64,000 bases of DNA from an uncultured bacterium (GCA_963744715.1 CAVUUR010000006.1:177558-241557); one strand, 5' to 3'; counted from the stretch's first letter, positions 6,923 to 44,616 are shown. Notes: a model not told the origin generated them from the letters alone. Translations and numbers: made by a program.

Positions 6923-8215
6923 ATGGGTATGAAAAAAATATTTTACATATTATATGTAATCGGTAATTATTCTTTATGTATGGATTATAATGATCAAACT
7001 ATTCCTTCTTTGCGCACACTAGCAGCACAGATGTATACCACGCATAATAATAACCCCTATGAATTTAGCAAAAAAAAGATACCTGACGATTGTCAAAATC
7101 TGCTAGCTCAAGCATGGTGTAATAATAATCCGGAAAAAGTTCCTCACTACGTATATCAATGCAATACCTTATCTGAGCAGGCATCTAAACAAACTATACT
7201 ATGGGGGGATTGTGATACTCTTTTGATGGCTGATAACAATAATTTTACTATTTTTGATATTTGCTCCGACACGGTAATTAAAAAAATTCCTCTTGATCAA
7301 GGATTTCACAATAACTACGCACAACTATCAACCACTATGATTGCCACTGCTCACAAAGACAATAAAATAATAAAACTCTATGATATAAAACATGATACCG
7401 AATCTCTCAATGCATATAACCATAGTTTTTCTCTTGTTCCGTTATTTCTTGATGAAAAAAACATCATGTTAACTGAATATAACTTTCCCAATATTGCATA
7501 TTTTTGCTATCAACTTGAACCATGGCAAGAAAAATATGTTATTGATACGCAAACTTTCGTAAAAAATACTTGTTGCGCCGTAGGGATAGCGAATAATACC
7601 TTTATTGTTAATAATCCCCCTCTTGGCATTCATATATTTGATCTGAACGACGGGCGACTACAAGAAATATTGCCAGAAAGCAGCCGAATAAAATCGGCAC
7701 TACTTTCAGGAGATAAAACAATAGTTGGTGGCTACCAAACACAAGAAGGTTCATTAGATGCTCTTACGTTATGGAACCTCGTAACTAAAAAAAAATCCGT
7801 GGCTCATTATCTGCAATCGCCATTTTTTCTTACCGATAATAAAGTTTTTTATTACACCAATAATGAGGTATTAGATTTGCAGAAAAATGTGTTCTATAAA
7901 CCTTATTACATCGCATCAAAAAAGATCAAAGACAAACTTTTTATTCCTCAAAAAGTTTGTAATGCTCATAATATTATGCTTCTTACTACCAATAATGTAT
8001 CACCAGAATTTTTTGTAACTAACAACAACGAACCATCAACGTTACATGAACTGCTTGGCGCATTAGATGTTGCATCATTACTGGAACAAACAACTACCCT
8101 AACGACTGCGCAACAACGAATTAATGAACTAGAGGAACAACTACAAAATTTGCCTCATGATAGTGATAAAAAATCTATCGCACAAATATTGCATTCATTA
8201 ACAGATAATTATTAA
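6923..8215 (+). CDS. exported protein with WD40-like beta-propeller and BC/SOCS-box-like N-terminal motif
   Basis: Signal peptide; PSLRTLAA; repeated beta-strand endings FTIFDI, IKLYDI, IHIFDL, LTLWNL. Confidence 0.55.
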   Translation: MGMKKIFYILYVIGNYSLCMDYNDQTIPSLRTLAAQMYTTHNNNPYEFSKKKIPDDCQNLLAQAWCNNNPEKVPHYVYQCNTLSEQASKQTILWGDCDTLLMADNNNFTIFDICSDTVIKKIPLDQGFHNNYAQLSTTMIATAHKDNKIIKLYDIKHDTESLNAYNHSFSLVPLFLDEKNIMLTEYNFPNIAYFCYQLEPWQEKYVIDTQTFVKNTCCAVGIANNTFIVNNPPLGIHIFDLNDGRLQEILPESSRIKSALLSGDKTIVGGYQTQEGSLDALTLWNLVTKKKSVAHYLQSPFFLTDNKVFYYTNNEVLDLQKNVFYKPYYIASKKIKDKLFIPQKVCNAHNIMLLTTNNVSPEFFVTNNNEPSTLHELLGALDVASLLEQTTTLTTAQQRINELEEQLQNLPHDSDKKSIAQILHSLTDNY

Positions 8216-9872
8216 TTAAGATACACTATTATAATCCTCAATAGATAGTTCATTATCCCTTTTAGGGTTATATTCACCATTCGATACTTCTTTGAATGTA
8301 CTATCAATAGAAACAATTGCTTCAAGCATTTCTATTATTTTGGGTAAATCATACTTTGCTTGGGATAAACCATAATACGTTGCTATGGATAACGCATCCC
8401 TTCCTTGATTATCCGTCAAAGCTGTTTTAATACTAGAGCCATATAAAAACAAGACTCTGAACATTGTAAGCGCATTGGCAATTCTCTTCTCTCTGTCTTT
8501 CTTCTTACCCATATACTCGATTAGCGTAATTAATGGCGTAGCATTATCAATAGCTCTTTGCACATTACGATCCGCGCCACGATTAAGTGCTTTTTTAAAC
8601 TCACTAACGTTATTATTTTGTATCGCGTCAAAAAGGTTTCCATTTAGTATTTTTTGTTCAATACCAGCTCTTGTTTTCAAATCATCTAAAAATTGCTGAC
8701 TATCTTCTGATGAATCGGGTGATGTTGCATGATTACGACATAAAAATTCTATTTGCTTTTGCAGCGTAACTGGTTGAGAAATAATTTTTTTTCCTTCCTC
8801 CCGCTCCTCTAGCGATGCCAGAAGAGTTGCCATCCCATTATCCGATATTTTATTCTCACTTTGATACATCTTTTCCATCTCCAGCAGCAACGAATCGGGT
8901 CTCGGGAAACTTTCTAATAGCATTACTAGTCGGATTCATTTCCCCTCCAATCTTTGCTATCATATCTTCTTCTATTTTTGATAAATTATAATACTGAGCT
9001 ATAGATAACGCATTCTTACCCTGATTATCCGTCAAATGTATGTCAATATTGGATCCGGGTGCGAGCAAGGCATTAAACATTTCAACCGCCTTGTTAATTT
9101 TTGTCTCACTTCCTTGATGAGTACTCATATACTCGATCAGTTCAATTAATGGCGTTTTTCCATCTTTATCTCTTTGTACATTACGATCTGCGCCACCATT
9201 AAGTGCCTTTTGAAAATCATCAATATTATTATTTTCTATTGCTTTAAAAAGATTTTTATTCACTGCTATTTGCTCAACAAGGATTTTACCTTTCAAAGCA
9301 TCAAAAAATCCCTGCTCACATTTTTTGGGCATATCATTTGTTGGTTTTTCATATTGCTCGCGTAAGCGGTCTATTTGTTCCACGAGGGTAACTGGTTGAG
9401 AAATAGTTTTTTTTCTTTTTTCCCGTTCTCGGAGTAATAACACAAGAACTTTTAAACCATCATCTGATATTTTACTTTTTTCTCTATACAATTTATCAAG
9501 ATTTTCCATTGCTAACATCAGCGGATTAGTATTAGTAGGAAGAATATCGCAAGACTTACTCATGCCACCACTTTTTAATACTTTTTTTATCTTACTCGGA
9601 TTCTTATTGCCTTTAATCGCATCATTAAGAGCATCTAGTCTTTCTTGAGCATTATCGCCAATTGGATTTTTATAATTCGGTGTCGACGCGCTTCTTCCAT
9701 ATGCTTTGGGATTAGTATCTTCAATATTTTCTTGCCTCGTTTTTCTTCCAAAAAGACTACTTCTAGATTTAGCTCTTGCTATTTTTTCCTTCGACGAATT
9801 TTTGTAATCCATGCATAAACTGAACTGAAAAAGAAATAGCAAACACCCTAACGTTTTTACGCTACCAATCAT
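8216..9872 (-). CDS. exported ankyrin-like protein with an internal tandem duplication (ORFs 8856..9872 and 8216..8923 joined by one apparent frameshift ~8930)
   Basis: Both halves contain KISD.G...ISQPVTL..QI, GADRNVQR..D..TPLI.LIEYM and LTDNQG..ALSIA.YY.LS; removing one A gives MNPLVMLLES, matching TNPLMLAMEN of the first copy. Confidence 0.75.
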
Positions 9873-9973
9873 AGCAAACCCCTTTACCGCAAAAAATATC
9901 AGTAATTTGTAAAAAATACAAAAATCAAATGTCCCGACATTTTAGGGTAAAAAAGCGTAAAAAGCAATAGTAT

Positions 9974-10552
9974 TTATTTAATTTGATATTCAAAATCAAC
10001 GAAGCCATCGTCTCGTTTTATTTCTTTAAAGCCTGCCCGTGTATACACTTTCATAGCCGGATAATTAGTGGTTCGTGTAACTAAGGTAATTTTTGTGCAT
10101 CCTTGTGCAATTAAATCATTCATAGCATATTTAAACAATTGATATCCGTAACCTTTTGATCTGTATTGATCAAGGACTCCCAAAAACAAAATGCGTCCTT
10201 CATAAAATTTCTTTTTATAATAGCTAACAAATCCAGCAGGAGATCTACCTTGATATAAAACTTTAATGGTCATAGCTCCTTTTTGCTGAAAATCTCTTGA
10301 AGTTCTATTATGCAACATGTGCGTAACATAATCTGGTGCAAAGGTAGGTGAAACGCCGGCAATTAACCACTCCCAATTGTGTTTAAAAATATCAAGAACA
10401 AAAGGAGTATCTCTACGATCATTAAAATCATAAATCCCTACTTTTTGATACAGGTTATAATAAACACCAAAGCCAGCTGCGATGCATACGCTTGAAAAAA
10501 TAAGCGCTAAACTTAATTTTTTAGTTAAAAAATTTATTCTTTTTTTTATCAT
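9974..10552 (-). CDS. GNAT-family N-acetyltransferase with N-terminal membrane anchor
   Basis: V...YRSKGYG acetyl-CoA motif, N.PA.KVY.RAGF. Confidence 0.85.
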   Translation of the reverse strand: MIKKRINFLTKKLSLALIFSSVCIAAGFGVYYNLYQKVGIYDFNDRRDTPFVLDIFKHNWEWLIAGVSPTFAPDYVTHMLHNRTSRDFQQKGAMTIKVLYQGRSPAGFVSYYKKKFYEGRILFLGVLDQYRSKGYGYQLFKYAMNDLIAQGCTKITLVTRTTNYPAMKVYTRAGFKEIKRDDGFVDFEYQIK

Positions 10553-10655
10553 GAAAACCCTATAATTTTGGAAGCAAAAATTTTTTAAAATAATATCGGA
10601 AAAAACTACTTTTTAGTTTTTCAAGTATTATTCATTTTTAGCAATAATTGCATAG

Positions 10656-11417
10656 TTACATTTCACTCTTACAGTTATTATATATAATTTTAGCAAGCAT
10701 TAATCCTTGTGCCGGTGCATTAGGTAAAGAATGTTCAGGATTTTTTGCTTCTAAAATAGTGCGCACGTAATCGATTGATAATGAACGTCGCGAAGCAACT
10801 TCAACTGATGCTCCAACAATGCGTCTGATCATGTAACGCAAAAAACCTGGCCCTTGTACTTCAATGCGGCATGCATTAAATCGTTTAAAAAAATGTATAG
10901 TGATAGCATCAATGCGCCGAGTGGTGGTTATTTGCTCGTCACCGGTACAAAAAGATCGAAAATCATGTTCTCCCACAAATATTTGTAATGCTTCATATAG
11001 TTTTTTGTCATCACATGGTCGTTGTAGTGCATATCCATAACGCGCTAAAAATGGTAATGGCCTTTGATTAAAAATATGATACCAATATATTTTTTGTTTA
11101 ACGGCGCGTTGTGGATGAAATGTTTCATCACTACTGCATAATGATCTAATGACGATATCTCCCGGCAATGCATTATTCCATGCACGCATCATAGTAGCAG
11201 GATCAAGATGTAAATCAGTAATAACTAAAGCAACTTGCCCCAATGCATGTACGCCGGCATCAGTACGCGAAGCGCCAATAATTTTTACTGGCTTGCTAAA
11301 AACATGCAAAAACGTAGATTCTAAAATATTAGCAACAGCTACCGCATGTGGTTGTACTTGCCAACCAGCATAACGAGTGCCGTCATACGCAACGAGTAAC
11401 TTATAATAAAAAGGCAT
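10656..11417 (-). CDS. truA: tRNA pseudouridine(38-40) synthase TruA
   Basis: YDGT.Y.GWQ.Q, SRTDAGVHA, G.HDF.SF, FLRYMIRRIVG, APAQGL. Confidence 0.97.
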   Translation of the reverse strand: MPFYYKLLVAYDGTRYAGWQVQPHAVAVANILESTFLHVFSKPVKIIGASRTDAGVHALGQVALVITDLHLDPATMMRAWNNALPGDIVIRSLCSSDETFHPQRAVKQKIYWYHIFNQRPLPFLARYGYALQRPCDDKKLYEALQIFVGEHDFRSFCTGDEQITTTRRIDAITIHFFKRFNACRIEVQGPGFLRYMIRRIVGASVEVASRRSLSIDYVRTILEAKNPEHSLPNAPAQGLMLAKIIYNNCKSEM

Positions 11418-11428
11418 AGATAAAAAAC

Positions 11429-13227: not shown

Positions 13228-13310
13228 TGTCTCTATTTTCGTTATCTGCAAAATCAAAGGGTCATTAATATAAAATACTTATTCTTATTGTAAATAATTT
13301 TTTACAAAAT

Positions 13311-16010: not shown

Positions 16011-16706
16011 ATGGTAACTAAAGCATATAAAGACCGATTCAATAAAAATTTTTTTGAATCGTCCGCCTGGCAGCTTAATAACCTGGTATGCGGCATTGAT
16101 GAGGTTGGCCGAGGTTGCCTGGCAGGGCCTGTTGTTACCGGGGCAGTTATTCTCTATCCGCATAAAAAAAGTCGTTTAATTAAAGATTCCAAACTACTCA
16201 CCCAGGAAGAATTGGCAGTAGCCTATTCATGGGTGGTCAAAAATTCATGGTTTAGCTTTGCCATTATCAGCGCTCGAGATATTGATAAATATAACATTTA
16301 TCATGCCACCCTACGGGCTATGAAACGGGCAGTTATGCAATTATTGAGTAATTGCCCACAAGCACCTTCACAAATAGTTATTGATGCCATGCCTCTTAAC
16401 CTGATGGGCACCCCGTATGAGCATATTGATGTTTTTCATTTTCCTTTTGGTGAAAGTAAATCGATATCCATTGCCGCCGCCTCAATTGTAGCCAAAGTAA
16501 AGCGGGATCAATTAATGCGCACTATCGCCCCTTCATTTCCCCCCTATCATTTTGCTCGCCATAAAGGATATAGTACAAAACTTCATCAAGAAGCGGTCAA
16601 AAAGCATGGGCGAATCATTATTCATCGAATTAAATTTTTAGAAAATAAGCATTTCACCCAACCAGAAATAGGTAATCCTGATGGAGACCAGCAAACCCTT
16701 TGCTGA
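16011..16706 (+). CDS. rnhB: ribonuclease HII
   Basis: GIDEVGRGCLAGPV, DSKLL, IAAASIVAKV.RD, HKGY.T..H. Confidence 0.97.
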   Translation: MVTKAYKDRFNKNFFESSAWQLNNLVCGIDEVGRGCLAGPVVTGAVILYPHKKSRLIKDSKLLTQEELAVAYSWVVKNSWFSFAIISARDIDKYNIYHATLRAMKRAVMQLLSNCPQAPSQIVIDAMPLNLMGTPYEHIDVFHFPFGESKSISIAAASIVAKVKRDQLMRTIAPSFPPYHFARHKGYSTKLHQEAVKKHGRIIIHRIKFLENKHFTQPEIGNPDGDQQTLC

Positions 16707-17277
16707 AATTATAGAAAGTTCATTAACCGGCTGGCTTGCCCAAAGTTGGCAATGGGATCAATTTCCTTCATTCGGCTCTGTTATTACTATTGAAACAAAA
16801 AAACGGATACTTTTTGGTATTGTACATCAAATTGAAACAGGCTCTATGGATCCTGTACGTTATCCATTTGCCTATCAAAAAACAGAAGAAGAACTGCTAC
16901 AGGAACAACCTCAAATTTTCGAATTCCTCAAAACAACCTTTCATTGTTTGACTATCGGCTACCAAGAACAGGGAGCACCTATTACCTATCAATTAGCTCC
17001 GGAACCCCCCAAAATTCATGCATTTGCTGCTTGCGCATCACGCCAACTATATAAAAATTTTTTTGCAAACAATCAGTACCTCCACATTCTTTTTGGCCTT
17101 TCAAATAGTATATTTAATCTTGACGAACTATTGCTTGCCATTTTAAAACAACTGAAAGATCAGGATATCCTTACTGAAGTTACCGTTGCCAATTTCATCG
17201 ATACTTTTTCCTTATTGACCGGCAATGATTACAAACGGTTAAAATTATTCTTGCAACGAGCAGAACAAATTATATAG
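16681..17277 (+). CDS. HAS-barrel domain-containing protein
   Basis: AEIIESS....AQ, P.FGS, G.V..IETGS.DP, EEL..EQPQIFE.L.T.F, P.PP.IH resemble stand-alone HAS-barrel proteins usually linked to HerA/NurA. Confidence 0.65.
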   Translation: METSKPFAEIIESSLTGWLAQSWQWDQFPSFGSVITIETKKRILFGIVHQIETGSMDPVRYPFAYQKTEEELLQEQPQIFEFLKTTFHCLTIGYQEQGAPITYQLAPEPPKIHAFAACASRQLYKNFFANNQYLHILFGLSNSIFNLDELLLAILKQLKDQDILTEVTVANFIDTFSLLTGNDYKRLKLFLQRAEQII

Positions 17278-17310: not shown

Positions 17311-17823
17311 GTGAATAATTATGTAGTACTATGCAGTGCCTTATTTACAATCTTTTCGACACTTGCAGCAATGGAATTAACAGAAGATAACCCTGTTGCA
17401 TTATTTATAACCAAGATTGTTCAAGCCCATCCTAATAATAATTCCTATGTATGGCATAATACTATTGACCATACCAGAAAAGGTTCTGGCACGTTATACG
17501 ATTATTTTGAGCTAGGCAGTTCTGTTAACGTAATTTCCAGCATAAGGCTACCAGAAGAAAAACAGCATGATTACGTTGATCAAATGCTCAAAGGAATATC
17601 GACTTTCGATTACAACGATAACACTATACTCATATTAACTGGCGCAGAAGAAACCATTAAAGAGGTCGTCCAACAAAAAGAACGTAAAAAAGCTACACGG
17701 TTAGCAAATACCAACAAATCCTCATTACTGTTATTTGGAAGTTTTGTTGCTGCCTGTACTATTATGGCAACCTTAACTACGCAACGTTTAATGCGCACCT
17801 ATATACCTAAACTATACCAATAA
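17311..17823 (+). CDS. hypothetical protein with signal peptide and C-terminal membrane helix
   Basis: GTG start with AAGGA RBS; hydrophobic N- and C-terminal segments. Confidence 0.6.
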   Translation: MNNYVVLCSALFTIFSTLAAMELTEDNPVALFITKIVQAHPNNNSYVWHNTIDHTRKGSGTLYDYFELGSSVNVISSIRLPEEKQHDYVDQMLKGISTFDYNDNTILILTGAEETIKEVVQQKERKKATRLANTNKSSLLLFGSFVAACTIMATLTTQRLMRTYIPKLYQ

Positions 17824-17909: not shown

Positions 17910-18896
17910 ATGAGAGATTGTTTCATGCGTTCTTTTTTTACTGTTATATTGTTTTTTCCCCTCTATACCTGGTGTAGTGATACTATTGTTTCACCTGCAC
18001 AGAATGTAAGTATGAACCAAACAAAACCTATCACTCACGAACGCATTCACCCTAAAAATATTCTTCTTTCATGGTTGTATACCAGTGTATTGAGTAAACC
18101 ATTACGATTATTACTCACACAGCGTTGGGTAAGTATAGGAGTTGGCTGGCTGGCTAATCGATCATTGAGTAAATATTTAATACCGGCATTTATACAAGCA
18201 CAACATATAAATACGCAAGAGATACTTCCGGAAGAATATGCAACGTTTAATGAATTTTTCTATAGAAAACTAAAACCGGATGCTCGCCCCATTGATAATG
18301 ACCCTGCATCATTCATATCCCCTTGTGATGGCAATTTGATGATTGTTCCTGATATTACGCCGACGACTGAATTTTTAGTAAAAAATAAATCTTTCAATCT
18401 TGAATGTTTTTTGCATGATAAAAATCTTGCTGAAAAATTCTACCACGGCACTATGGTGGTTATTTATCTTGCTCCTTCCGATTATCACCGTTTCCATGCG
18501 CCACTTGATTGTATCCCAGAACAAGCAATTCGCATTAATGGAAAATATGAATCAGTTAATACCATTGTGTACCAAGCAGGCATTCAACCATTAACGGAAA
18601 ATGAACGCCAGTTAACGATATTAAAAACATCCTCCGCAGGTGACATTGCTTATGTTTCTGTGGGAGCACTTTTCGTTGGCGGCATTACCCATACTTATCA
18701 AGCAGGACAACTATCAACAAAAGGTGATGATTTTGGTTATTTCTCTTTCGGCGGATCTACTGTAGTATTATTATTACAACCAAATACGTTTAATATTAAT
18801 CCTGCATTAGAACAAGAACTCAAAAAACATGGAAATGCATCAATAAAAATGGGTATGCCTTTAGGAACTATTATTCAAAACAATCAGTTCGAATAA
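17910..18896 (+). CDS. psd: phosphatidylserine decarboxylase proenzyme
   Basis: FNEFFYRKLKPDARPI, SPCDG, YLAPSDYHRFH, NER, FGGST autocleavage motif. Confidence 0.95.
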   Translation: MRDCFMRSFFTVILFFPLYTWCSDTIVSPAQNVSMNQTKPITHERIHPKNILLSWLYTSVLSKPLRLLLTQRWVSIGVGWLANRSLSKYLIPAFIQAQHINTQEILPEEYATFNEFFYRKLKPDARPIDNDPASFISPCDGNLMIVPDITPTTEFLVKNKSFNLECFLHDKNLAEKFYHGTMVVIYLAPSDYHRFHAPLDCIPEQAIRINGKYESVNTIVYQAGIQPLTENERQLTILKTSSAGDIAYVSVGALFVGGITHTYQAGQLSTKGDDFGYFSFGGSTVVLLLQPNTFNINPALEQELKKHGNASIKMGMPLGTIIQNNQFE

Positions 18897-24948: not shown

Positions 24949-26886
24949 TTACAGCGCTCTATGCAAATTGCGCAACGTCATATTTAACGTTTGCAGCTGT
25001 TGGTATACTACGCCAAGATCTACCCGCGTTGGTTGTTGTTTTCTCTGCGCTTCTTGAAGTAATGCTTTTGCTTGTTCGTTACCAGATAAATCTAAAGCGG
25101 TTTGCCCTACTGCATTTTTTAATGTAATATTTGCTCCCTCATTAAGCAAGGCTGGTATGAGCTCATATCTAGTACCCTCCGCTGCCATCATTAATGCACT
25201 AAAGCCTTCTCGATTTTGTAAATTAACGTTGATATTTTTAATTCTTAAAAGCAATGTTATTATCGGTTCCTCATCATCAGAAATCGCTGCCATAAGCGCA
25301 GTATCTCCATTGTCATTCTGTCCATTAATATCCGCACCCGCATCAATCAGCGCTTGAACGATACCGGGATTACGATGTTCTACTGCTTCTATGAGAAGTG
25401 TTGTTGCATGACCAGCTGCGTCTTTTATCACGTCATTAATATGATCTTTAATTTCTTGATCACCCAGGAAATCTTTTATTTGGGTTACCTGAACCTTTTT
25501 AATCATTTCTTGTAACTTTTTCAATTTTTGCTCAGTAGTTAGTGCTGGTTTTTTAATCAACTTTTCAAGATAAGTTACAATGTTATTGTTATGCGCGCCT
25601 TTAGCAACGTCAAGAGCTGTCTGAGGCTTCTTTTCATTTATTCCAAATATTACAGCTTTGTTAAGATCTGCGCCCTTATCAACGAGTAATTGTATTATCT
25701 GATTTGCCATATCTTCTGCGTCATTCATAACTACATGAAAAATAGGTGTTAATCCATTCTCATCTTCCAAATTTGAATTTGCACCTTTATTTAAAAGAGA
25801 ACTAACTACCTTACGCGCATCGTCAGTAAAAGCAAGATCTCGTTGCGTTGCATAAAAAAGAGCGCTTTCTCCTTTACTGTCTCGTGCATTAACATTAGCC
25901 CCTTTATCAAGCAAAAATGCAACGATGCCTGGTTGCCAATTAGATGCTGCCTCCATTAAAGCAGTTCTACCATTATTATCCGCTTTATTAACTAACTCAT
26001 GATTCTTGGTATATAGACTCAATACTTTAGAATAATCTTTACCCGCGGCATCAATAAATTCCTTGATTTCTTGTTGTTCTTTAGTCGGCTGTTCTCTTGC
26101 AGCGCCACGTATTAATGATCTAATAAAGTCATTCTTGGCATAGTTCACGGCCGTGTCCCCTTTGGAATCCTTTGCCGAAACATCTGCTCCTGCCCGAAGC
26201 AATGCCCCTACTATTTCCCTATTTCCTTTCTTAGCTGCAAACATAAGTGGTGTTTTACCTGCATTTGTTTTCACATTTACATCGGCATCGTTCTCTATCA
26301 GAAATTTAATAGCAGGTAACTGTGACCCTTCTATAGATGCAATCAATGGATTCATTTCTTCACCCCGATATTGCATCATCGCATCAATATTGGGTAGCAT
26401 ATTTGGCAAAATTGTTTTTAAAGTTCCAACTAATCCTTTATAAGCAGTATCAACAAAATTTTTTAATTGTTCTTCTTTTTTCTTAGGTAATGCTGGCGGA
26501 TTTTTTAATAATTTAACAATTGCTTCAAATTCTGGTTTGCTCTCTGCTAAAGACAATGGCGTTTTTTTATCTGAAGTGTGCGGATACTTAGGATTTGCAC
26601 CTTTGTTCAAAAGCTCCCTTATAAGCGAGAAATACCTTGCTCGATCTAATGTATCTTGTGGTATTTCTGTCACATCAATTGCAAGCCACAGGGGAGTTTC
26701 TCCAGTCTTATAAGGATCTGCATTTGGCGCAAGTATATTCATAGTTATCATGTTTGCTGCAAGGCCATAAGTTTTATCGGTAATATATGATTTAAATTCA
26801 CCGTAATTAAGCTTTTCTTGCTCCATAGCAAAAGCAGTATGCATTCCTATCATAGTAAAAGTTAATAATAACATCTTTTTGTTCAT
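24949..26886 (-). CDS. exported multi-module ankyrin repeat protein
   Basis: Signal peptide; repeated G.T(P/A)L..A and GA(D/N)(V/I)N ankyrin motifs; C-terminal DLG.V.QQL tail. Confidence 0.92.
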   Translation of the reverse strand: MNKKMLLLTFTMIGMHTAFAMEQEKLNYGEFKSYITDKTYGLAANMITMNILAPNADPYKTGETPLWLAIDVTEIPQDTLDRARYFSLIRELLNKGANPKYPHTSDKKTPLSLAESKPEFEAIVKLLKNPPALPKKKEEQLKNFVDTAYKGLVGTLKTILPNMLPNIDAMMQYRGEEMNPLIASIEGSQLPAIKFLIENDADVNVKTNAGKTPLMFAAKKGNREIVGALLRAGADVSAKDSKGDTAVNYAKNDFIRSLIRGAAREQPTKEQQEIKEFIDAAGKDYSKVLSLYTKNHELVNKADNNGRTALMEAASNWQPGIVAFLLDKGANVNARDSKGESALFYATQRDLAFTDDARKVVSSLLNKGANSNLEDENGLTPIFHVVMNDAEDMANQIIQLLVDKGADLNKAVIFGINEKKPQTALDVAKGAHNNNIVTYLEKLIKKPALTTEQKLKKLQEMIKKVQVTQIKDFLGDQEIKDHINDVIKDAAGHATTLLIEAVEHRNPGIVQALIDAGADINGQNDNGDTALMAAISDDEEPIITLLLRIKNINVNLQNREGFSALMMAAEGTRYELIPALLNEGANITLKNAVGQTALDLSGNEQAKALLQEAQRKQQPTRVDLGVVYQQLQTLNMTLRNLHRAL

Positions 26887-27071: not shown

Positions 27072-28097
27072 TTAAAATGCTGCACGCAAATTCTGTAATG
27101 AAGTTTGAAGCTTCATTAATTGTTGATGTACTATGCCAAGATCTGCCGGTTGCGATGGTTGTTTATTCAAACTTTCAAGGTAGTTTATGATTTCTTGTTT
27201 TTTCCGGCCTCTGGCAATATCAAGAACAGTTATTGATTTTCCATTTTGGGCTAATACAGTTTTACCAAGATCTGCACCTTCTTGCACCAACACCTTTATG
27301 ATTGCAAGAGCATGGTCTTCATCACCATTTTCCACAGCATAAAAAATGGGTGTTACTCCCGATTGATCTGCAATATTTGGATTTGCATGGTGAGCTAAAA
27401 GGGTCGTAACGATATCAACAGCACTTACATCAAATTCTCCAGGACTTCTGGTTACCCATATTAATGCCGTATGTTTATTACCATCCTGTGCATTAGGATT
27501 AGCACCTTCAGTGAGCAAAAAATTAACATTAGCTAATTTTCTGGCTGCTGCGGCATTCATTAAAGCTGTCATACCAAGGTTATCCTTAGCATCAAGTAGG
27601 CCTTTGTTTTTGTCATATAATGCTCTTAACTGCGCAACGTCAGCCCTACCTGCTGTGCCAATAAAATTTACAATTTGTTCTTTTGTTGGCTGAACTGGTT
27701 GCGGGCCAACGGGTTGCTCTCCCTTTAATTTTCCTTTTAACAAATCAATAGTCTCTGGAGTAGTAAATCCTTTTCTCTCTGCCAAAGATACTAATCCCGT
27801 ATTAACTTGTGCACCTTTATCTAACAATCTTTTTATAAGATATTCATAAGGCTGCTTATCGATCTCTTCCATTTTTATTGGTGTATTAATTGTAAGGAAA
27901 AGGGGAGTTTCTCCATTAGAGTAGGGATCAGCATCTGCCCTGACTGTCCCAGAATCTATCATCGTTGCTGCGAGAGAATATTTTCTCAATGAAATTAATT
28001 TAGAAAATTGATCATACTTAAGATCTCTTTGTAGTGCCCCAAAAACTGTATTTATCGCTAAAATACTAAAAACTAATAACAATATCTTTTTTTTCAT
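27072..28097 (-). CDS. exported ankyrin repeat protein, paralog of 24949..26886
   Basis: Start MKKKILLL after AAGGAG; ADPY..GETPL, GMTALM.AA, G.TPIF; DLGIVHQQL tail. Confidence 0.9.
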   Translation of the reverse strand: MKKKILLLVFSILAINTVFGALQRDLKYDQFSKLISLRKYSLAATMIDSGTVRADADPYSNGETPLFLTINTPIKMEEIDKQPYEYLIKRLLDKGAQVNTGLVSLAERKGFTTPETIDLLKGKLKGEQPVGPQPVQPTKEQIVNFIGTAGRADVAQLRALYDKNKGLLDAKDNLGMTALMNAAAARKLANVNFLLTEGANPNAQDGNKHTALIWVTRSPGEFDVSAVDIVTTLLAHHANPNIADQSGVTPIFYAVENGDEDHALAIIKVLVQEGADLGKTVLAQNGKSITVLDIARGRKKQEIINYLESLNKQPSQPADLGIVHQQLMKLQTSLQNLRAAF

Positions 28098-28098
28098 A

Positions 28099-28268
28099 CC
28101 TATCTCCTTATTAATAGTATTTTTACCTAACCTTACTGCGCGTGGCATTGATAATGCAATAGTTTTTTAATAACAATATCTTTTTTGTCATAGAAATCTC
28201 GCTTTATTACAATATTTTACATAACATTACTGTTCGCACTGACGACAATGCAATATTTTTTTGATAAA
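28099..28268 (-). repeat. two tandem copies of the ankyrin-gene promoter/RBS unit; the upstream copy heads a 22-codon remnant ORF (MTKKILLL..., start 28191)
   Basis: ATTGCATT...CAGTAA.GTTA.GTAAAA motif repeated; remnant matches the MKKKILLL/MNKKMLLL starts. Confidence 0.6.
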
Positions 28269-37637: not shown

Positions 37638-39409
37638 TTATTCTTTACTAAAGCCCTCAAGAGGTGGAAATTCAACATCAAAATATCCTTTGGCCATATA
37701 ATTTTCAACCAATTCTTTTCCCGATCTTGCAACAAACCCTCGATGATACCATTGTCCGTTAGTAGAATCTATGATATAAGTAAAAAGACCGGTATCAAAT
37801 GAATTATCTTGATAAATAATCGCACCAGGAAGGGTAATAAGATGATCCTTTTTCCCCCCATTTGCCTACTTGGTGTTGTTGCTTGCTTACCCCATTGCTG
37901 TACATAGGTATCAACATCTGGCGAAAATCCATGAACGAGAATAGTTTTTGTGCGTTCACTATCAATGGTATATTTTTTATTTTCTGGGTCAGTATAACCT
38001 TGCTTTTGCAATGCTGATAGTGGATCGGTTAACCACCGAGTAACCCATGGAGTATAGGAAGGTTTGCCGGAAATAGTTAGTTGATTTTCCGTATCGGTCT
38101 TAAAAAGTTTGATAACAACGTTATTCTTAACGTCATTAATAGTTATATAATCTTCAGTTTCTTTATTACTTTCATCGACAAACTCTTGTTCCTCTTCCTC
38201 GCAAACATTATCAATCAAATCTTCTTTCTGATGAAATTTTTCCTTACTCTCTTGTAATGGCAAGAATTGTTTTTTATTTTTTTTCTTTTGCTTTGCGCTG
38301 CTAGTTTTTTGTTTTAATAAATCGGGAAGCCATTCTTGATTTTCACCCCTTGCAAGCGCATTAGATTCGTCCCGCAATAATGATTCTGGTAAGACTGCTG
38401 TGTCAGGAGAACCAGTTTCAACGTTAAATTTTTTTAAATAAGCGAGAACCTTAACATTTTTGTTATCTGCTTTACGTTCAATATCTATGGTACTCTTAAT
38501 TTCTTTATAGAGCTCTCCATAATATTTATTAAATTTATCTTTATTTTCCTGATATTTTTGTACTAAAACTTTGAGATTTCTAATGTACGTATGAAGATTT
38601 TCATCGTCTGCAACATTAAAGCCTTCACGTGATGACTCCTCTAATAGATTAGCAGTATACTGATTTATGCATTCTACGCCACACTTGAGACCTATCAAAA
38701 ATTCATTTAATTTTGTATTCTGTTTTGAAAAAATACTATTATACGATTTACCAATTTCACGCATAGAATTGAATAAATTTGATACGTTCGTTTCATTAAT
38801 TTTAGTAGCTTGCTTCATATTCATATTGTACTGAAAAGTTTGTGCCATTCTTTTGATTTCTTTGTTTGCACTGTACTTATACTGCTCAATAAATCTCTGT
38901 GTATGTTCATTATTTTGCGCCGTCAAATTGCTATGTGCAAGTTCATAAACACTCTCATTTTCAGGTTGTGAAGGGGGTTTTACATTTGAAAACACTGACA
39001 TAAAAAGAGAAGAATTTCTTATGACAGCCGCAACAGCCTCTGGCGTTTTCATAGATAAATAGCAAAAATCTAAAGGTTCTTTAAACCCACTTACTACAGT
39101 CTCTCCTTTCAAAATAAAAGATGATTTACTTATTTTTTGACAATGTTCTTCGCTTTGAACATATCCTTGTATCTGATTAATAAATGTATCTTGTATCAAA
39201 AAACCATTAGCAGCTTTTTGTAAGGTTTTTAAATATTCTTCAGATTTCATTGATGGAGAATATCCACATAATGTTTTAATATCAACCGGAACACTTTTCT
39301 TCTTTTTATTTTTCGCTTGCACGGTTTTTGGTGTAATTTCTGAAAGTTCCATCGAAAATAATAAAGGTTGCAATAAAAAAGTACTCAGTAATAATAATGA
39401 TAATTTCAT
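37638..39409 (-). CDS. large exported hypothetical protein; apparent frameshift ~37850 hides a C-terminal GLFTYIIDSTNGQWYHR segment
   Basis: Signal peptide MKLSLLLL; track ORF ends 37769 but the shifted frame continues to TAA at 37638-37640. Confidence 0.65.
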
Positions 39410-39700
39410 AATTAAATAACTTTCATAGAAAAAATAATATTGATAAATTAGCCCTATAATCAATATTAATACAAAAATGAAAAATTACAAATGCATTGGG
39501 TATGCTTGCGAAAATCACTCAATTATAAATTTAACAAGCATATCACTGTGTCAAAAAAATCATAATTGAATCATATTTTAATTTTTAACCTATCTTAATA
39601 AAATTTATTTACCAAGATATTAACCTATTTTTGTTGTATACTTTTTATTATTCTGGTTTAAAAAAATATCAATAATAGCCAAGCCCCAATAGGATTATGT

Positions 39701-40936
39701 ATGAATACATTACAACATATTGATCATGAATTATGGCTCATTATAGAACAGGAAAAAATTCGAGAACAAACAACCATAAATTTAATTGCGTCAGAAAATT
39801 ACGTTCATCCCGCTGTGTTAGAAGCTACTGGCTCAATTTTGACTAATAAGTATGCCGAAGGCTATCCAAATAAACGATATTATGCCGGATGCCAAATAGT
39901 TGATAAAGCAGAATTGCTAGCGCAACAACGTTGCCAACAATTATTTAATGCAGAACATGTTAATGTACAACCACATGCCGGATCACAAGCAAATTTTGCC
40001 GTGTATTATGCTGCACTTAATCCAGGCGACACTATTATGGGCATGAGCTTATCAGAAGGAGGACATTTAACACATGGTCATGCGGTTAATGCCTCCGGTA
40101 CATTTTTCAAAAGCATTCAATATGCGGTGGATAAAAATACTGAGCAACTTGATTATGATGCTATTGAACAGTTAGCCCATCAACATAAACCAAAATTAAT
40201 TATTGCAGGAGCCTCCGCATATTCGCGCACGATTGATTTTAATCGATTTTCAAGCATTGCTAAAAATGTAGGTGCTTTTTTTATGGCAGATATAGCACAC
40301 ATTGCAGGCCTTGTTGCTACAAATCTACATCCCTCGCCAGTACCGGTTGCTGATTTTGTCACGAGTACTACCCATAAAACATTGCGTGGGCCACGAGGCG
40401 GTTTGATTATGTGTAAAAAACAACATGCATCAATAATTGATCGTGCAATTATGCCGGGAACGCAAGGCGGACCCTTTATGCACATCATCGCTGCAAAAGC
40501 TGTTGCCTTTAAATTAGCACAAGAACCTGCATTTATAGAATATCAAAAACAGGTTATTGAGAATGCTCAAACAATGGTACAAGAATTTAAAAATCTTGGT
40601 TATCGCATCGTTGCTGATGGTACCGATACCCATTTATTTGTCATTGATTTACGTTCAAAACAATTAAACGGTAAAATAGCACAAGAAGTGCTTGACACTA
40701 TTGGTATTACAGCCAGTAGAAGCTGTGTTCCTTTTGATACGCAACCGCCATGGATAACCAGTGGCATACGATTCGGAACACCAGCCATAACAACGCGCGG
40801 CATGAAAAAAGATGCTGTTATTGCTATCGCTCACGTTATTCATGAAGCATTACACAATATTGAGAATTCAAAAAAATTAGCGGTACTAAAACATGAAGTA
40901 GAACAATTGGCTAAAAAATTTCCAATCTATGCATAA
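39701..40936 (+). CDS. glyA: serine hydroxymethyltransferase
   Basis: LIASEN, NKYAEGYP, GGHLTHG, TTHKTLRGPRGG, SGIRFGTPA.TTRG. Confidence 0.98.
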   Translation: MNTLQHIDHELWLIIEQEKIREQTTINLIASENYVHPAVLEATGSILTNKYAEGYPNKRYYAGCQIVDKAELLAQQRCQQLFNAEHVNVQPHAGSQANFAVYYAALNPGDTIMGMSLSEGGHLTHGHAVNASGTFFKSIQYAVDKNTEQLDYDAIEQLAHQHKPKLIIAGASAYSRTIDFNRFSSIAKNVGAFFMADIAHIAGLVATNLHPSPVPVADFVTSTTHKTLRGPRGGLIMCKKQHASIIDRAIMPGTQGGPFMHIIAAKAVAFKLAQEPAFIEYQKQVIENAQTMVQEFKNLGYRIVADGTDTHLFVIDLRSKQLNGKIAQEVLDTIGITASRSCVPFDTQPPWITSGIRFGTPAITTRGMKKDAVIAIAHVIHEALHNIENSKKLAVLKHEVEQLAKKFPIYA

Positions 40937-41018
40937 TTGTTGCGACACATTTTTTCTTTTTTTGCTATATACTTGATCACAACATATACTACCTACCTTT
41001 ATAATCATCTGGAAATGT

Positions 41019-42347
41019 ATGCATAATTTTTATACTGATGGCTGGCTTAAAAAAAAAGTCGGCAACAGCCTTGAAGAAATTCATAAATCAATCAACATTC
41101 CTCATAATGGCTCATTTATACAAAAAATGCTTTCATTCGCTGGGCCTGGCTACTTGGTAGCTGTCGGCTACATGGATCCTGGTAATTGGGCAACTGATTT
41201 GGCCGGAGGTTCCGCATTTGGTTACACCTTATTATCAGTTATCATGCTATCAAATATTATGGCAATTATTTTACAATACCTTTCTATTAAATTAGGTATT
41301 GTGAGTGGCCGAGATTTAGCACAAGCATGCCGCGATCATTATTCACGCAGCACTACTATATTTTTATGGATATTGGCCGAAATTGCGATTATTGCCTGCG
41401 ATTTGGCAGAAGTAATTGGTTCCGCTATTGCGCTGTATCTTTTATTTCATATCCCATTAGCAGTCGGTGTAATTATCACCGCTGGTAATGTAGCATTAAT
41501 TTTTATGCTCCAACATTATAACTTTCGTTACGTCGAATCATTAGTTATCATGCTGATTACTATTATTATGATCTGTTTTATCACGATCATTATAATGGCT
41601 CAACCATCACTCACACAATTGCTAAAAGGATTTATTCCAACAACAGAACTGTTTACTAATACCGAAATGCTCTATATTGCGGTTGGTATTTTAGGAGCAA
41701 CCGTAATGCCACACAATCTTTATTTGCATTCTGCTATAGTGCAAACACGCAATAATGAAGAAACAGAAAAAGGCAAGCGCGAAGCATTATGGTTTTTTAC
41801 GCTTGATTCAACGATCGCTCTTTCATTAGCATTTTTTGTGAACGCTGCAATTTTAATTGTTGCCGCCGCCGTATTTCATGTGAACAGTATGTACCATGTA
41901 GCGCAATTAGGAGATGCCTATTTATTATTGTCACCATTATTGGGCACCGGTGCGGCCAGCATTATATTTGCTTTAGCACTTTTGCTCTCTGGGCAAAATG
42001 CAACGTTGACCGGAACATTGGCAGGGCAAATAATTATGGAAGGTTTTATTGATATCAAAATTCCACCATGGGCACGCAGGCTCATTAGTAGATCATTAGC
42101 AATTATTCCTGCAATGATAGTAATTGTATTATTTGGTGAACAAAAACTTTCACAATTATTATTATTGAGTCAGGTTATTTTAAGTCTGCAATTGCCCTTT
42201 GCTGTATTTCCCCTCGTGCGTTTTACCAGCCAAAAAGATAAAATGCACAATTTTGTAAATAGTTTGCTTATGCAAATCATTGCTTATGGCATCGCTTTTC
42301 TTATAGCATTGCTCAATATATGGCTTATCTATAAAGCTATCATATAA
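41019..42347 (+). CDS. mntH: Nramp-family divalent metal (Mn2+) transporter
   Basis: YMDPGNWATD, GATVMPHNLYLHS, GTLAGQIIMEGF, SQVILS.QLPFA. Confidence 0.96.
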   Translation: MHNFYTDGWLKKKVGNSLEEIHKSINIPHNGSFIQKMLSFAGPGYLVAVGYMDPGNWATDLAGGSAFGYTLLSVIMLSNIMAIILQYLSIKLGIVSGRDLAQACRDHYSRSTTIFLWILAEIAIIACDLAEVIGSAIALYLLFHIPLAVGVIITAGNVALIFMLQHYNFRYVESLVIMLITIIMICFITIIIMAQPSLTQLLKGFIPTTELFTNTEMLYIAVGILGATVMPHNLYLHSAIVQTRNNEETEKGKREALWFFTLDSTIALSLAFFVNAAILIVAAAVFHVNSMYHVAQLGDAYLLLSPLLGTGAASIIFALALLLSGQNATLTGTLAGQIIMEGFIDIKIPPWARRLISRSLAIIPAMIVIVLFGEQKLSQLLLLSQVILSLQLPFAVFPLVRFTSQKDKMHNFVNSLLMQIIAYGIAFLIALLNIWLIYKAII

Positions 42348-42444
42348 ATAACTAACCTATGTAAAAAAGACTTTGCTTAAATATTGCAATGCGTGCAGCA
42401 AGGGCAGTAGTATAAAAGCAAAATAATTCAAAAAAGGAGCATGA

Positions 42445-44616
42445 ATGAATAAAAAAATAGTTGTATGCATCAGCATATTATCACTTTATAGCACAGCCAC
42501 ATTTGGCATGAGCGATCAAGCAAAACTACAAGACATATTAACAAAGTTTAAGAGCCCAGGCATCGCCGGTACTAAATATACAAATTTATTGACAGCAATA
42601 AATGCATTCACGGGTGATGTAAATACCAAATTTACTAATGGTTCAAGGCTGCTTATAGAACTTGCAAAAGATTCCAGCCCATCAATAATAGAACCTATAA
42701 AGGCACTGCTAGGTAAAGGGGCCGATCCTGCATTAAAAGATGGTAACGACTGGAAGGCTATTGATTATGCATCCAATGCCAATAAGGATGTATTTAATTT
42801 ATTGCTAGAAACACAGAACAACTTACAAGATTTTGTGGAGGCTGCAAAAAAAGGTGATATGAAAATTGTACGCGATTTCCTTGCAAAATCACCTGAAAAA
42901 ATTAATAATTTTGCACCGACAAGAATCGGCGGCCAGCAATTAAATGCTCTCATGGCAGCAGCCGCTAATAGTAGACTTCCTATGATCAACGAATTGTTAT
43001 CAAACCAATACAAAGCGGATGTAAATATACAAAATGAAAATGGCTATACGGCACTCATTCTTGCTTGCATTACTCCTGATAATAGACAAGTAATAGAGGC
43101 GCTTCTTAAGGCTGGCGCCGATGCCACAATAGCTGATAAAAATGGGCAAACCGCATTAATGCATGCAATTTTAAGTAAAAATATCAGCGTTGTAGATGGC
43201 TTAGTCAAAAAATCAGATATTAATGCTCTCGATAAAAACGATAAAACAGTATTGGATTTAGCCAATGATGCAAACATGTCTAAGATAGCTGCGAGCTTAA
43301 AAAAATTGTACGGTGCAAAAACGTATACAGAACTTCAGGCACAACCACCGGCTCCCGCCCAAATAACAGTTAAAGAATTTGTGCAAGCTGCTCACGATGG
43401 CGATCTTGCAAAAGTACAACAATTTCTCGCAAATCCGGAGAGCGTTAAAAAAATTAATGAGTTTGCAGACATACGAGAAGAGGGCATACAACCAATTACA
43501 TCTAATGCTTTATTTGCAGCCGTAAAAGAATCAAAAGAAGCTATTATAAATGAACTAGTTAAACATAGAGAGCTTGCTATAAACACGCAAGATCAAAATA
43601 AAAATACTGCGCTCCACGTTGCAGTTTTCAAGGAAAACCAGAATATTATTACAACATTATTAAATAACGGTGCAAATCCAAATATTCGAGACTCCTTCGG
43701 CATGACTCCCCTAATGCGTGCCGTTCAGATGAACAATACCGATAGCGTAAATGCATTATTAAATAACCAAAAAACCGATGCTAACCTGAAATCGAACAAG
43801 GATTTCCCACAAACTTGGGAAACTGCTTTATGGATTGCTCTTAATAAGGGAAACCCGAATAAGGATATTATTAAAGCATTAGTAGATAAAGGTGCAGATA
43901 TTACTATTAAAAATCGTCAAGGCAAACTGCCCCTGCAATTTGCTCGAGATAACAACCTCACGGAAATTGAGACAATTTTAGAACAAAAATCACCCTCTAT
44001 TGAAACAAAGCTCAAGGCTCTTGAACAAGCAATTGAAAAAAATTTGCCTGCTGAAGTAAAGGATCTTTTACGAGATGCAGATATCAAGAATCATATTAAT
44101 GATTTGACAACAATAAATAACGAGAAGAGAACATTTCTTACCTATGCTGCAGGTCAAAGAAATATAGATCATACTATTATTCAAGCATTACTTGGTGCCG
44201 GGGCAAATATTAATGGAACGGATCATATGGGCGATACAGCTCTTATGCAAGCAGTCTTAGCGAATAATCAAAGCTTGGTAACGCTATTATTAGATAATAA
44301 TGCTAACGTTAATGCGCAATCTGAGGCTGGAGATAAAGCTACAGCATTAATGTTAGCCGCAGAATGGGCGCCGCACCTAATATCATTGTTACTTGCGCGT
44401 GGAGCAAGGATTGATTTGAAAAACAAATATGAGGAGACTGCTTTGGATATAGCCAAACGGAATAATAATGGGGATTCTATAAAATTTCTTGAAGAAGCAG
44501 CGAAAAAACAACAACCTTCACAACAAGTGGATCTTGGCACGGTATATCAAAATCTAATGCAACTTAATACTGCATTGCGAACATTACAACAAACATTGCG
44601 ACCCAGCTTTCGCTAA
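42445..44616 (+). CDS. exported multi-module ankyrin repeat protein
   Basis: Signal peptide; many ankyrin repeats; DLGTVYQNL tail; AAGGAG RBS. Confidence 0.92.
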   Translation: MNKKIVVCISILSLYSTATFGMSDQAKLQDILTKFKSPGIAGTKYTNLLTAINAFTGDVNTKFTNGSRLLIELAKDSSPSIIEPIKALLGKGADPALKDGNDWKAIDYASNANKDVFNLLLETQNNLQDFVEAAKKGDMKIVRDFLAKSPEKINNFAPTRIGGQQLNALMAAAANSRLPMINELLSNQYKADVNIQNENGYTALILACITPDNRQVIEALLKAGADATIADKNGQTALMHAILSKNISVVDGLVKKSDINALDKNDKTVLDLANDANMSKIAASLKKLYGAKTYTELQAQPPAPAQITVKEFVQAAHDGDLAKVQQFLANPESVKKINEFADIREEGIQPITSNALFAAVKESKEAIINELVKHRELAINTQDQNKNTALHVAVFKENQNIITTLLNNGANPNIRDSFGMTPLMRAVQMNNTDSVNALLNNQKTDANLKSNKDFPQTWETALWIALNKGNPNKDIIKALVDKGADITIKNRQGKLPLQFARDNNLTEIETILEQKSPSIETKLKALEQAIEKNLPAEVKDLLRDADIKNHINDLTTINNEKRTFLTYAAGQRNIDHTIIQALLGAGANINGTDHMGDTALMQAVLANNQSLVTLLLDNNANVNAQSEAGDKATALMLAAEWAPHLISLLLARGARIDLKNKYEETALDIAKRNNNGDSIKFLEEAAKKQQPSQQVDLGTVYQNLMQLNTALRTLQQTLRPSFR

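Follow-up and report, generated by a model that had tools for sequence, protein, structure and literature searches.

A large share of the proteins exported by an uncultured member of Candidatus Babeliales (Dependentiae) carries Met, most often followed by Glu or Asp, immediately after the signal peptide. The feature was noticed in a 64-kb stretch of DNA (the window, by which we mean this whole stretch) that forms the end of contig C6 of the genome (G000; 1.26 Mb, 12 contigs, approximately 35% G+C). An earlier note on the window listed seven such junctions in unrelated open reading frames (ORFs) and proposed that they mark effector export or host mimicry. When the exact coordinates were translated, all seven junctions between a signal peptide and Met were found, each at the start of its ORF (Table 1), and genome-wide counts confirmed that the Met-acidic rule at signal peptide junctions is real, far beyond chance and far larger than the window. 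Of the Sec-type signal peptides, about a third have Met, and then usually Glu or Asp, as the very next residues, so that signal peptidase I (SPase I) is predicted to expose a Met-acidic N-terminus. Roughly one exported protein in three, and about 10% of all ORFs, has Met at this position.

The aspartyl-tRNA synthetase of G000 shares 65% identity with that of a Candidatus Babeliales metagenome-assembled genome, and the comparison pool consisted of 60 further genomes of the phylum, all of the same order or the same family as G000. The ORF set of G000 comprised 1222 non-overlapping ORFs of at least 90 amino acids (aa), covering 84% of the genome. Signal peptides were recognized by a net-positive n-region and an uncharged 8-residue core with a mean Kyte-Doolittle value of at least 2.0; the cut was placed at the best −3/−1 site no more than 10 residues away, and the +1 residue was ignored in scoring. 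All cleavage sites given here are predictions of this heuristic (hydrophobic core, n-region charge and −3/−1 rule), not of SignalP. The resulting set of 531 signal peptide-like ORFs is lax: many of its members are membrane proteins, and some are cytosolic false positives. Membrane-protein filters left a high-confidence set of 116 class II proteins, in which Met directly follows the signal peptide, and 241 class I proteins, whose signal peptide is followed by another residue. By the heuristic's own standards the signal peptides are of the Sec/SPase I type, ORF 17311 (window ORFs are named by the position of their start) having no Lys or Arg in its n-region. Six of the seven window junctions were recovered by the heuristic, which missed ORF 17311 because of this n-region.

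Met was the commonest predicted +1 residue in G000, occurring in 86 of the 531 signal peptide-like ORFs (16%), followed by Leu (63); Gln was predicted at +1 in 30. The background frequency of Met at residues 16-45 of all ORFs is 2.5% (binomial p = 4e-42), which places +1 Met approximately 6-fold above background, and an excess was also seen in four other lineages. When any −3/−1 site within 14 residues of the core was accepted, Met followed such a site in 149 proteins, against 141 for Leu, 126 for Ile and 116 for Ser. With no −3/−1 condition at all, Met followed by Asp, Glu, Gln or Asn (M[DEQN]) lay no more than 14 residues from the hydrophobic core in 120 signal peptide-like ORFs; at 0.0035 per residue, the rate for the proteome, about 26 would be expected. 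The residues preceding these 120 junctions were those of a peptidase site: position −1 was Ala (41), Ser (35), Gly (14) or Cys (8) in 98 of 120, whereas Ala, Ser and Gly together precede M[DEQN] in about 21% of cases elsewhere in proteins, and position −3 was Leu, Ile, Cys, Val, Ala, Ser or Thr in 104 of 120 (led by L30, I19, C14 and V14). Thus, as the earlier note had supposed, a site obeying the −3/−1 rule falls directly before the Met. When the script was applied unchanged to 250 kb of Escherichia coli K-12 as a control, Ala was the top +1 residue, with Met in 0 of 69.

The second position is linked to the Met. Among the 116 class II proteins the +2 residue was Glu in 33, Asp in 26, Gln in 10 and Asn in 6, so that 59 (51%) carry an acidic residue and 75 carry one of the four; the resemblance to substrates of the eukaryotic acetyltransferase NatB that had been suggested from the window holds at the level of sequence. 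In class I, one of these four residues stood at +2 in 69 of 241, while Glu and Asp together occupied +1 in 25 and +2 in 39. Hydrophobic residues at +2 numbered 11/116 in class II and 75/241 in class I, and small residues permissive for methionine aminopeptidase 16/116 and 74/241. Among the window's seven junctions, +2 is Asp or Glu in five, and Ser and Pro in the two weaker ones.

The lipobox of lipoprotein (SPase II) signals has the form [LVI][ASTVI][GAS]C, with the Cys at +1. Inspection by eye showed that the sequences YSLC and FSLC preceding MDY in two window proteins do not fit it and that the other five window junctions have no Cys; across the 120 M[DEQN] junctions, Cys stood at −1 in 8. 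No twin-arginine (Tat) pair was seen by eye in the seven window signal peptides. G000 encodes one SPase I, represented by a single Peptidase_S26 match (G000:C11:21214-21924, E = 1e-36).

A Met at the boundary could also be a start codon, either the true one or a second one, from which a cytosolic form would be made alongside the exported form. The latter is suggested by the presence of an in-frame ATG exactly at the signal peptide boundary in 149 genes. However, a Shine-Dalgarno (SD)-like 4-mer was found 4-18 nt upstream of the signal peptide start in 79 of these 149 class II genes (53%) and upstream of the junction Met in only 3, which is below the 7.1% (274/3864) seen for control internal ATG codons; in the window, purine-rich SD-like stretches were seen by eye ahead of the signal peptide start in six of the seven genes. 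Nor do the residues after the Met resemble those after initiator codons: the native second residue in 457 ORFs without a signal peptide was mostly Ile, Asn or Lys, with Glu at 4.2% and Asp at 3.1% and with Asn, Ser and Ala commoner than these, whereas Glu and Asp dominate at +2 of class II. The junction Met is independent of start codons, and the idea that it is simply the true start was not borne out. Dual initiation is further opposed by the −1 and −3 residues, which obey the peptidase rule, and by the consideration that a cytosolic copy of an ankyrin or WD40 effector would have no obvious use in the bacterium; we regard it as highly improbable.

At the DNA level, codon use at −1 and +2 equaled genome-wide synonymous usage, and neither a nucleotide motif nor an odd codon choice was found at the junction beyond the demand for the amino acids, so that the rule acts at the protein level. 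The rule is also independent of gene family. Single-linkage clustering of the mature parts (E < 1e-5) placed the 357 high-confidence proteins in 263 families, of which 69 contained class II members only (60 of them singletons), 181 class I only and 13 both; when one random member was drawn per family, 29% were class II. The carriers are thus unrelated, as had been claimed: at least 69 unrelated families are involved genome-wide, and the mature parts of ORFs 6923 and 9872 are non-homologous, with no relation beyond the first 26 residues. These two ORFs do have in common a near-identical segment of about 19 nt at the junction, TTTATG[T/C]ATGGATTA[T/C]AA, and nothing else. A signal peptide cassette shared by unrelated genes was considered and rejected: among about 62,000 pairs taken across families, no more than 14 reached 8/16 identities, which corresponds to the chance tail.

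Conservation of the junction was clearest in ORF 17311, a 170-aa orphan for which sequence searches gave one marginal match in 30 relatives. Since orthologues could not be collected by similarity, they were located by synteny with the gene upstream (16681-17277), which is conserved in 31 of the 31 genomes searched. Positional orthologues were found in seven genomes of family f1, with pairwise identities of 18-35% (56% in one pair). Their signal peptides and the residues that follow differ, but Met was present in 7/7 and Glu or Asp after it in 7/7. From these orthologues above all, the Met-acidic junction appears to be under purifying selection. Among homologous pairs within G000, of which only 12 were usable, identity was 0.92 at +1 and 0.83 at +2, compared with 0.25-0.75, mostly 0.4-0.7, at other positions; an anchored alignment across genomes yielded only two usable pairs.

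These data bear on the possibility that the Met is a functionless historical footprint, i.e. the old initiator of cytosolic or acquired genes that received a signal peptide by extension at the 5′ end. Enrichment of the rule in eukaryote-like and orphan genes, possibly recent acquisitions, would fit such an origin, and Lys-rich, hydrophobic peptides should readily be encoded by AT-rich upstream DNA. A hint came from codons: in G000, TTG encodes 5 of the 11 Leu residues that stand at predicted +1 before Asp, Glu, Gln or Asn, against 18% of Leu genome-wide. The hint did not recur in relatives, since the eight pooled genomes gave a single Leu followed by Asp or Glu at +1, and its codon was not TTG. 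The lineage-variable hotspot between SHMT and EF-P (loci L174-L181) also fits, in that it contains different, mutually unrelated orphans with a signal peptide followed by Met and an acidic residue: a 546-aa orphan (Met-Glu) in G000, a 171-aa orphan (Met-Glu) in G004 and three small ORFs (Met-Asp or Met-Glu) in G007; none was found in this interval in G001, G002, G003, G005 or G006. A former initiator does not, however, account for Glu or Asp at +2 in half of class II, when both together make up 7% of native second residues, or for an invariant Met and acidic residue in seven orthologues that are otherwise divergent, with flanks only 18-35% identical. Sister lineages that are equally AT-rich and have as many signal peptides do not show the rule, and no signal peptide module was common to unrelated genes. 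Taken together, we consider a footprint improbable.

To follow the rule in relatives, we ran the same script on 12 further Babeliales genomes, one per family and 88-200 kb of each, counting Met after a −3/−1 site among signal peptide-like ORFs and, within these, the cases with Asp or Glu next. Met was found in 35 of 91 in G005 (family f1; Asp or Glu next in 21), 36 of 98 in G023 (f15; 18), 24 of 85 in G027 (f19; 8) and 44 of 102 in G025 (f17; 20). The corresponding counts elsewhere were 8 of 80 in G058 (f11; 0), 7 of 34 in G063 (f3; 0), 3 of 79 in G020 (f12; 0), 17 of 103 in G057 (f6; 1), 4 of 40 in G010 (f2; 1), 6 of 46 in G013 (f5; 2), 0 of 34 in G029 (f21; 0) and 4 of 35 in G015 (f7; 1). 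Pooled, Met followed by Asp or Glu occurred in 67/376 in the first four genomes and 5/451 in the other eight (p = 4e-19, a value that treats kin as independent). In related genomes, to which the earlier note had suggested extending the test, the preference was thus strong in four of the 12 families sampled and weak or unseen in eight, and the rule is lineage-restricted within Babeliales. A tree computed with FastTree from one or two short proteins was unresolved, with even family f1 non-monophyletic, and for this reason we call the rule lineage-restricted and do not assign it to one clade.

In the window, where Pfam bore out the domain assignments, the carriers are either ankyrin proteins or proteins without a Pfam family, and a contrast of this kind extends over the genome. 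A Pfam scan (E ≤ 1e-4) covered the proteins whose loci were available: in class II these were 86 of 116, and in class I 158 of 241, of which the 8 shortest were dropped to leave 150. Proteins without a family made up 60/86 of class II and 88/150 of class I. Ankyrin repeats (Ank) were matched in 8/86 and 7/150, WD40 in 8/86 and 2/150, leucine-rich repeats (LRR) in 2/86 and 1/150, and a C2H2 zinc finger in 1/86 and 0/150. These four eukaryote-like classes were together enriched in class II (19/86 against 10/150, p = 8e-4), while other domains, mostly of envelope proteins and enzymes, were depleted (7/86 against 52/150, p = 4e-6); both p-values are overstated because paralogues are not independent. 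The contrast predicted by the earlier note, with repeat and hypothetical proteins on one side and envelope proteins on the other, therefore holds, and the psd, clostripain and delta-60 proteins and the 652-aa exported protein of the window indeed have no Met at the junction. The seven other class II matches were Peptidase_M3, SpoIID, thioredoxin, PAP2, PEBP and two weak outer membrane protein barrels, and several of their junctions are doubtful by eye. In class I, the other matches included TamB, HtrA, YidC, DD-carboxypeptidase, two amidases, M48, FKBP, thioredoxin, fasciclin and PD40, together with secreted hydrolases (GH18, GH1, C11, PLA2_B and PLD) and a few cytosolic false positives. A signal peptide without Met was found on ten Ank, WD40 or LRR proteins, and class I repeat proteins varied in their predicted +1 residue. 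A C-terminal membrane anchor was rejected as a trait of class II (5/116 against 4/241). Several G000 proteins with signal peptides have eukaryote-type or nucleic-acid domains, namely a DOT1 histone methyltransferase, a LigD 3′-phosphoesterase, a C2H2 zinc finger protein (METEE after the signal peptide) and a DnaJ-ankyrin fusion (MQPK after the signal peptide); their loci are L046:14184-14834, L044:4312-4962, L053:10838-11509 and L054:16384-18723, outside the window.

This selectivity is difficult to reconcile with an effect confined to the envelope, in which, as with the Q-rule of Bacteroidetes, a Met-acidic pair at +1/+2 would adjust processing by SPase I or shield exported proteins from peptidases that the bacterium itself has in its periplasm or on its surface, without involvement of the host. 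A lineage-wide +1 preference tied to stability does have a precedent in the accessible text of PMC5837995 and PMC10653852, and the −1 and −3 residues, even when left unconstrained, fit a SPase I site. Only about a third of signal peptide proteins follow the rule, however, and such envelope proteins as TamB, HtrA, YidC, DD-carboxypeptidase, amidases, FKBP and thioredoxin do not. A single SPase I serves both classes, and no exported Met-specific peptidase was seen among the two M24 peptidases checked. An envelope-level effect is therefore, in our judgment, quite unlikely.

A bacterial component that reads the mark in the periplasm would make it a sorting tag, routing cargo to a second export step, by type II secretion or vesicles, apart from the resident envelope proteins. 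The enrichment on Ank, WD40, LRR and orphan proteins and the depletion on envelope proteins agree with this, as does the conservation of the junction in orthologues; lineage restriction would be expected of a lineage-specific receptor, and type II secretion is the sole secretion system found in Babela, according to the accessible text of PMC4378268. Candidates for a partner were few (SPase I, GNAT, secretins and M24 peptidases), and none of them co-varied with the rule. SPase I is single in G000, and its copy number elsewhere (1-3 matches) does not track the rule. Two tandem secretins (G000:C3:2225-7484) are present in 61 of the 61 genomes searched, and a third, short one (open frame of about 450-620 aa) occurs in f2, f4, f5, f7, f11 and f18, each of which either lacks the rule or was not typed for it. 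As exported Met aminopeptidases, the two M24 peptidases of G000 were rejected: neither is among the signal peptide-like ORFs, and inspection of the 448-aa one by eye showed no signal peptide. A GNAT acetyltransferase gene beside the two SLC-MDY genes was likewise rejected as reader or modifier: homologues were found in rule-positive f1 and f19 and in rule-lacking f2, f12, f6, f5 and f3, and none was found in f4, f16, f11, f18 or f7. The acetyltransferase itself combines an n-region of strong positive charge with a hydrophobic segment of 20 residues, a putative signal anchor or signal peptide; the catalytic domain would then be extracytoplasmic. Its homologues occur in 51 of the 61 Dependentiae genomes searched.

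The window also holds a direct comparison, since ORF 26886, with Met, has a paralogue at 27072-28097 with Ala at the homologous position; together with the 10 Met-less repeat proteins, this pair indicates that Met is not obligatory for export. Because of this, and because the few candidate readers (secretins, SPase I and GNAT) include no lineage-specific machinery, a sorting tag seems unlikely to us. The interpretation first given to the window thus survives in part. The cut is predicted directly before a Met that is more frequent than background and is not a start codon, and the cargo contrast holds; the undescribed effector-delivery system that it envisaged was not found among the candidates, the two secretins and the single SPase I being common to lineages without the rule, and Met is not required for export.

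The most economical view of the pair is that it matters only after cleavage, as a new N-terminus. We tentatively favor the reading, plausible from sequence patterns, that the Met-acidic N-terminus is a stability device on the host side that escapes the eukaryotic N-degron pathways. SPase I would cut before the Met and leave a mature Met-acidic N-terminus, class II proteins would be delivered to the host cytosol, and there the N-terminus would go unrecognized by N-degron pathways, with a presumed effect on stability or acetylation. According to the accessible text of PMC11735805, non-acetylated N-termini with Gly/Ala/Ser/Thr/Cys, Arg/Lys/His, Phe/Trp/Tyr/Leu/Ile or Asp/Glu/Asn/Gln/Cys are degrons, Asp, Glu, Asn, Gln and Cys N-termini being converted into degrons, and Met followed by a hydrophobic residue is a degron as well. 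The same text lists signal peptidases among the makers of Arg/N-degrons and states that NatB shields only a subset of its substrates, NatB-type N-termini being the least dependent on shielding. By elimination from these classes, Met-Asp/Glu/Asn/Gln would be approximately the only N-terminus made by a signal peptidase that is expected to be stable in a eukaryotic cytosol. Stability of this kind would explain why Met replaces the usual Ala or Ser, why the +2 residue is acidic and why envelope proteins have no need of the rule. In its broader form, as an 'M-rule', the proposal is that several Babeliales lineages give their host-cytosol proteins the one N-terminus that escapes every eukaryotic N-degron pathway, Met-Glu/Asp marking the cytosol-delivered set of about 10% of the proteome; this form is possible, and we advance it with somewhat greater reserve.

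Several points weigh against host-side stability. The depletion of hydrophobic and small residues at +2 follows largely from the excess of Asp and Glu and so gives no independent support. Eukaryote-like proteins without Met have Tyr, Gln, Leu, Asn or Trp at predicted +1 (sites uncertain), which would be destabilizing residues, and class I repeat proteins do not fit the N-degron reading. Eight lineages rich in signal peptides lack the rule, and for these the reading must invoke differences in host or compartment. The N-degron rules themselves were derived from yeast, plants and mammals, not from the protist host of this bacterium, and NatB is mainly ribosomal, which makes acetylation of an imported protein doubtful. 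Heritability of class II was not seen among reciprocal best hits in partial positive genomes, where 3 pairs were class II with class II and 20 class II with class I, the pairs being mostly repeat-family paralogues and uninformative. Finally, cleavage, delivery and stability are all drawn from sequence.

The coordinates of the window junctions, the comparators without Met and neighboring features are given in Table 1.

Table 1. Signal peptide junctions, comparators and other features of the window (positions are those of the window; the hyphen in the junction column marks the predicted cut)
Feature	Span (strand)	ORF	Junction	Signal peptide	Residue pair	Met codon	Remarks
Class II junction	6923-6985 (+)	6923-8215, 430 aa	MGMKKIFYILYVIGNYSLC-MDYN	aa 1-19 (6923-6979)	Met-Asp 6980-6985	6980-6982	no Pfam family; G-rich SD-like stretch upstream
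Class II junction	9807-9872 (−)	8856-9872, 338 aa	...FQFSLC-MDYK	aa 1-20 (9872-9813)	Met-Asp 9812-9807	9812-9810	weak Ank matches
Class II junction	17311-17376 (+)	17311-17823, 170 aa	...FSTLAA-MELT	aa 1-20 (17311-17370)	Met-Glu 17371-17376	17371-17373	orphan; GTG start; C-terminus hydrophobic
Class II junction	26821-26886 (−)	24949-26886, 645 aa	...MHTAFA-MEQE	aa 1-20 (26886-26827)	Met-Glu 26826-26821	26826-26824	ankyrin-repeat protein
Class II junction	39347-39409 (−)	37769-39409, 546 aa	...QPLLFS-MELS	aa 1-19 (39409-39353)	Met-Glu 39352-39347	39352-39350	orphan in variable interval beside SHMT
Weaker class II junction	42445-42513 (+)	42445-44616, 723 aa	...STATFG-MSDQ	aa 1-21 (42445-42507)	Met-Ser 42508-42513	42508-42510	ankyrin-repeat protein
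Weaker class II junction	5190-5261 (−)	4557-5261, 234 aa	...SNTIIS-MPLS	aa 1-22 (5261-5196)	Met-Pro 5195-5190	5195-5193	no Pfam family
Comparator without Met	27072-28097 (−)		...NTVFG-ALQRD				ankyrin paralogue of 24949-26886; Ala at position homologous to Met
Comparator without Met	44811-45527 (+)		...SSIALG-GEIQ				ankyrin protein
Comparator without Met	54828-56786 (+)	652 aa	...IASNA-EDVV				exported protein; putative beta-barrel of the earlier note, no Pfam match
Comparator without Met	46969-48531 (+)		...FWSFS-TESN				clostripain family (Peptidase_C11)
Comparator without Met	17910-18896 (+)		...LYTWC-SDT				phosphatidylserine decarboxylase (psd), hydrophobic N-terminus
Comparator without Met	59475		AADG-NLD				delta-60 protein
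Near-identical junction segment	6965-6990 (+); 9827-9802 (−)						about 19 nt, in ORFs 6923 and 9872
ORF downstream of ORF 9872	8216-8923 (−)	235 aa					no signal peptide of its own
GNAT acetyltransferase	9974-10552 (−)						
Variable hotspot	39409-39700 region						SHMT/EF-P interval
IF-2	50178-51353 (+); 51265-52188 (+)						two overlapping frames
DUF5122	59475-60104 (+); 60041-60655 (+)						overlapping ORFs in different frames
DUF5122, further piece	62787-63449 (−)						opposite strand

Some of these features call for comment in their own right. ORF 9872 and the 235-aa ORF that lies downstream have an overlap of 68 nt; the latter repeats the internal ...ISQPVTL..QI..L... and Ank-like segment of ORF 9872, and the two may represent a tandem domain duplication or a single frameshifted gene. 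The ankyrin paralogues 24949-26886 (−), 27072-28148 (−) and 42445-44616 (+) have a common motif, approximately DLG.V(Y/H)QQL..L...L.NL, which lies at the extreme C-terminus both with and without +1 Met. The overlap of the two IF-2 frames suggests a frameshift near 51265-51353, and the split could result from an assembly error, a pseudogene or recoding. The coding sequence for DUF5122 (delta-60 repeat, beta-propeller) is similarly broken into pieces.

Short motifs beside a signal peptide that decide the later fate of a protein have been described in other systems. The PEXEL motif of Plasmodium (RxLxE/Q/D) is cleaved by an aspartic protease of the endoplasmic reticulum to leave xE/Q/D, and, as proposed here, cleavage yields an acidic or amide-bearing N-terminus that marks host-targeted proteins; unlike PEXEL, which belongs to a eukaryotic parasite, the junctions described here have no upstream Arg/Leu motif and are predicted to be cut by the bacterial −3/−1 rule. 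The +2 rule of lipoproteins, in which Asp at +2 confers Lol avoidance, likewise lets a residue after the cleaved signal peptide set later fate, but it requires a lipobox and a lipidated Cys at +1, whereas +1 here is Met and SLC-MDY misfits a lipobox. With NatB-type N-termini, which the accessible text of PMC11735805 describes as the class that keeps Met and depends least on acetylation, the predicted class II N-termini share the M-[D/E/Q/N] form; the difference is that they would be made post-translationally by a bacterial signal peptidase, not on the host ribosome.

The nearest parallel is the Q-rule of Bacteroidetes, in which Gln at +1 of SPase I substrates is cyclized to pyroglutamate by glutaminyl cyclase (PMC5837995 and PMC10653852, accessible text). 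In both cases a residue exposed by SPase I is non-random in one bacterial group, and the Q-rule papers, as far as their accessible text goes, tie theirs to the stability of exported proteins. Here, however, the residue is Met and not Gln, and it is coupled to Glu or Asp at +2; the Q-rule is described in the same accessible text as covering most SPase I substrates, including periplasmic ones, whereas about a third of signal peptide proteins follow the Met rule, conserved envelope proteins not being among them. No modifying enzyme was found for the Met rule, no search having been aimed at membrane-associated glutaminyl cyclase, which has no relevance to a Met N-terminus, and the rule, present in four of the 12 Babeliales families sampled, has a narrower range than the Q-rule. 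The accessible text of PMC5837995 makes no mention of methionine, TM6 or Dependentiae, and the literature searched, which included the accessible text of PMC6561590 and PMC4378268, supplementary tables excluded, yielded no account of Met being preferred after signal peptides in Dependentiae. The closest known phenomenon is therefore the Q-rule, and what is new here is the residue, the coupled second position, the cargo-selective scope and the narrower lineage range.

Dependentiae are parasites of protists that occur widely and have hardly been cultured. According to the accessible text of PMC6561590, signal peptides are encoded by nearly half of their genes. A two-residue mark that lies on about 10% of the proteome, appears to be selected and is limited to certain lineages allows host-directed proteins to be nominated from their sequence, and lineages with and without the rule provide a natural comparison for finding whatever reads the mark. 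The rule also offers a second example, after the Q-rule, of how a residue exposed by SPase I can come under lineage-wide selection. If the N-degron reading is true, the degradation rules of the host would shape the signal peptide cleavage sites of a bacterium; if the M-rule is true, this would be the first bacterium found to shape the products of its signal peptidase to the N-end rules of its host.

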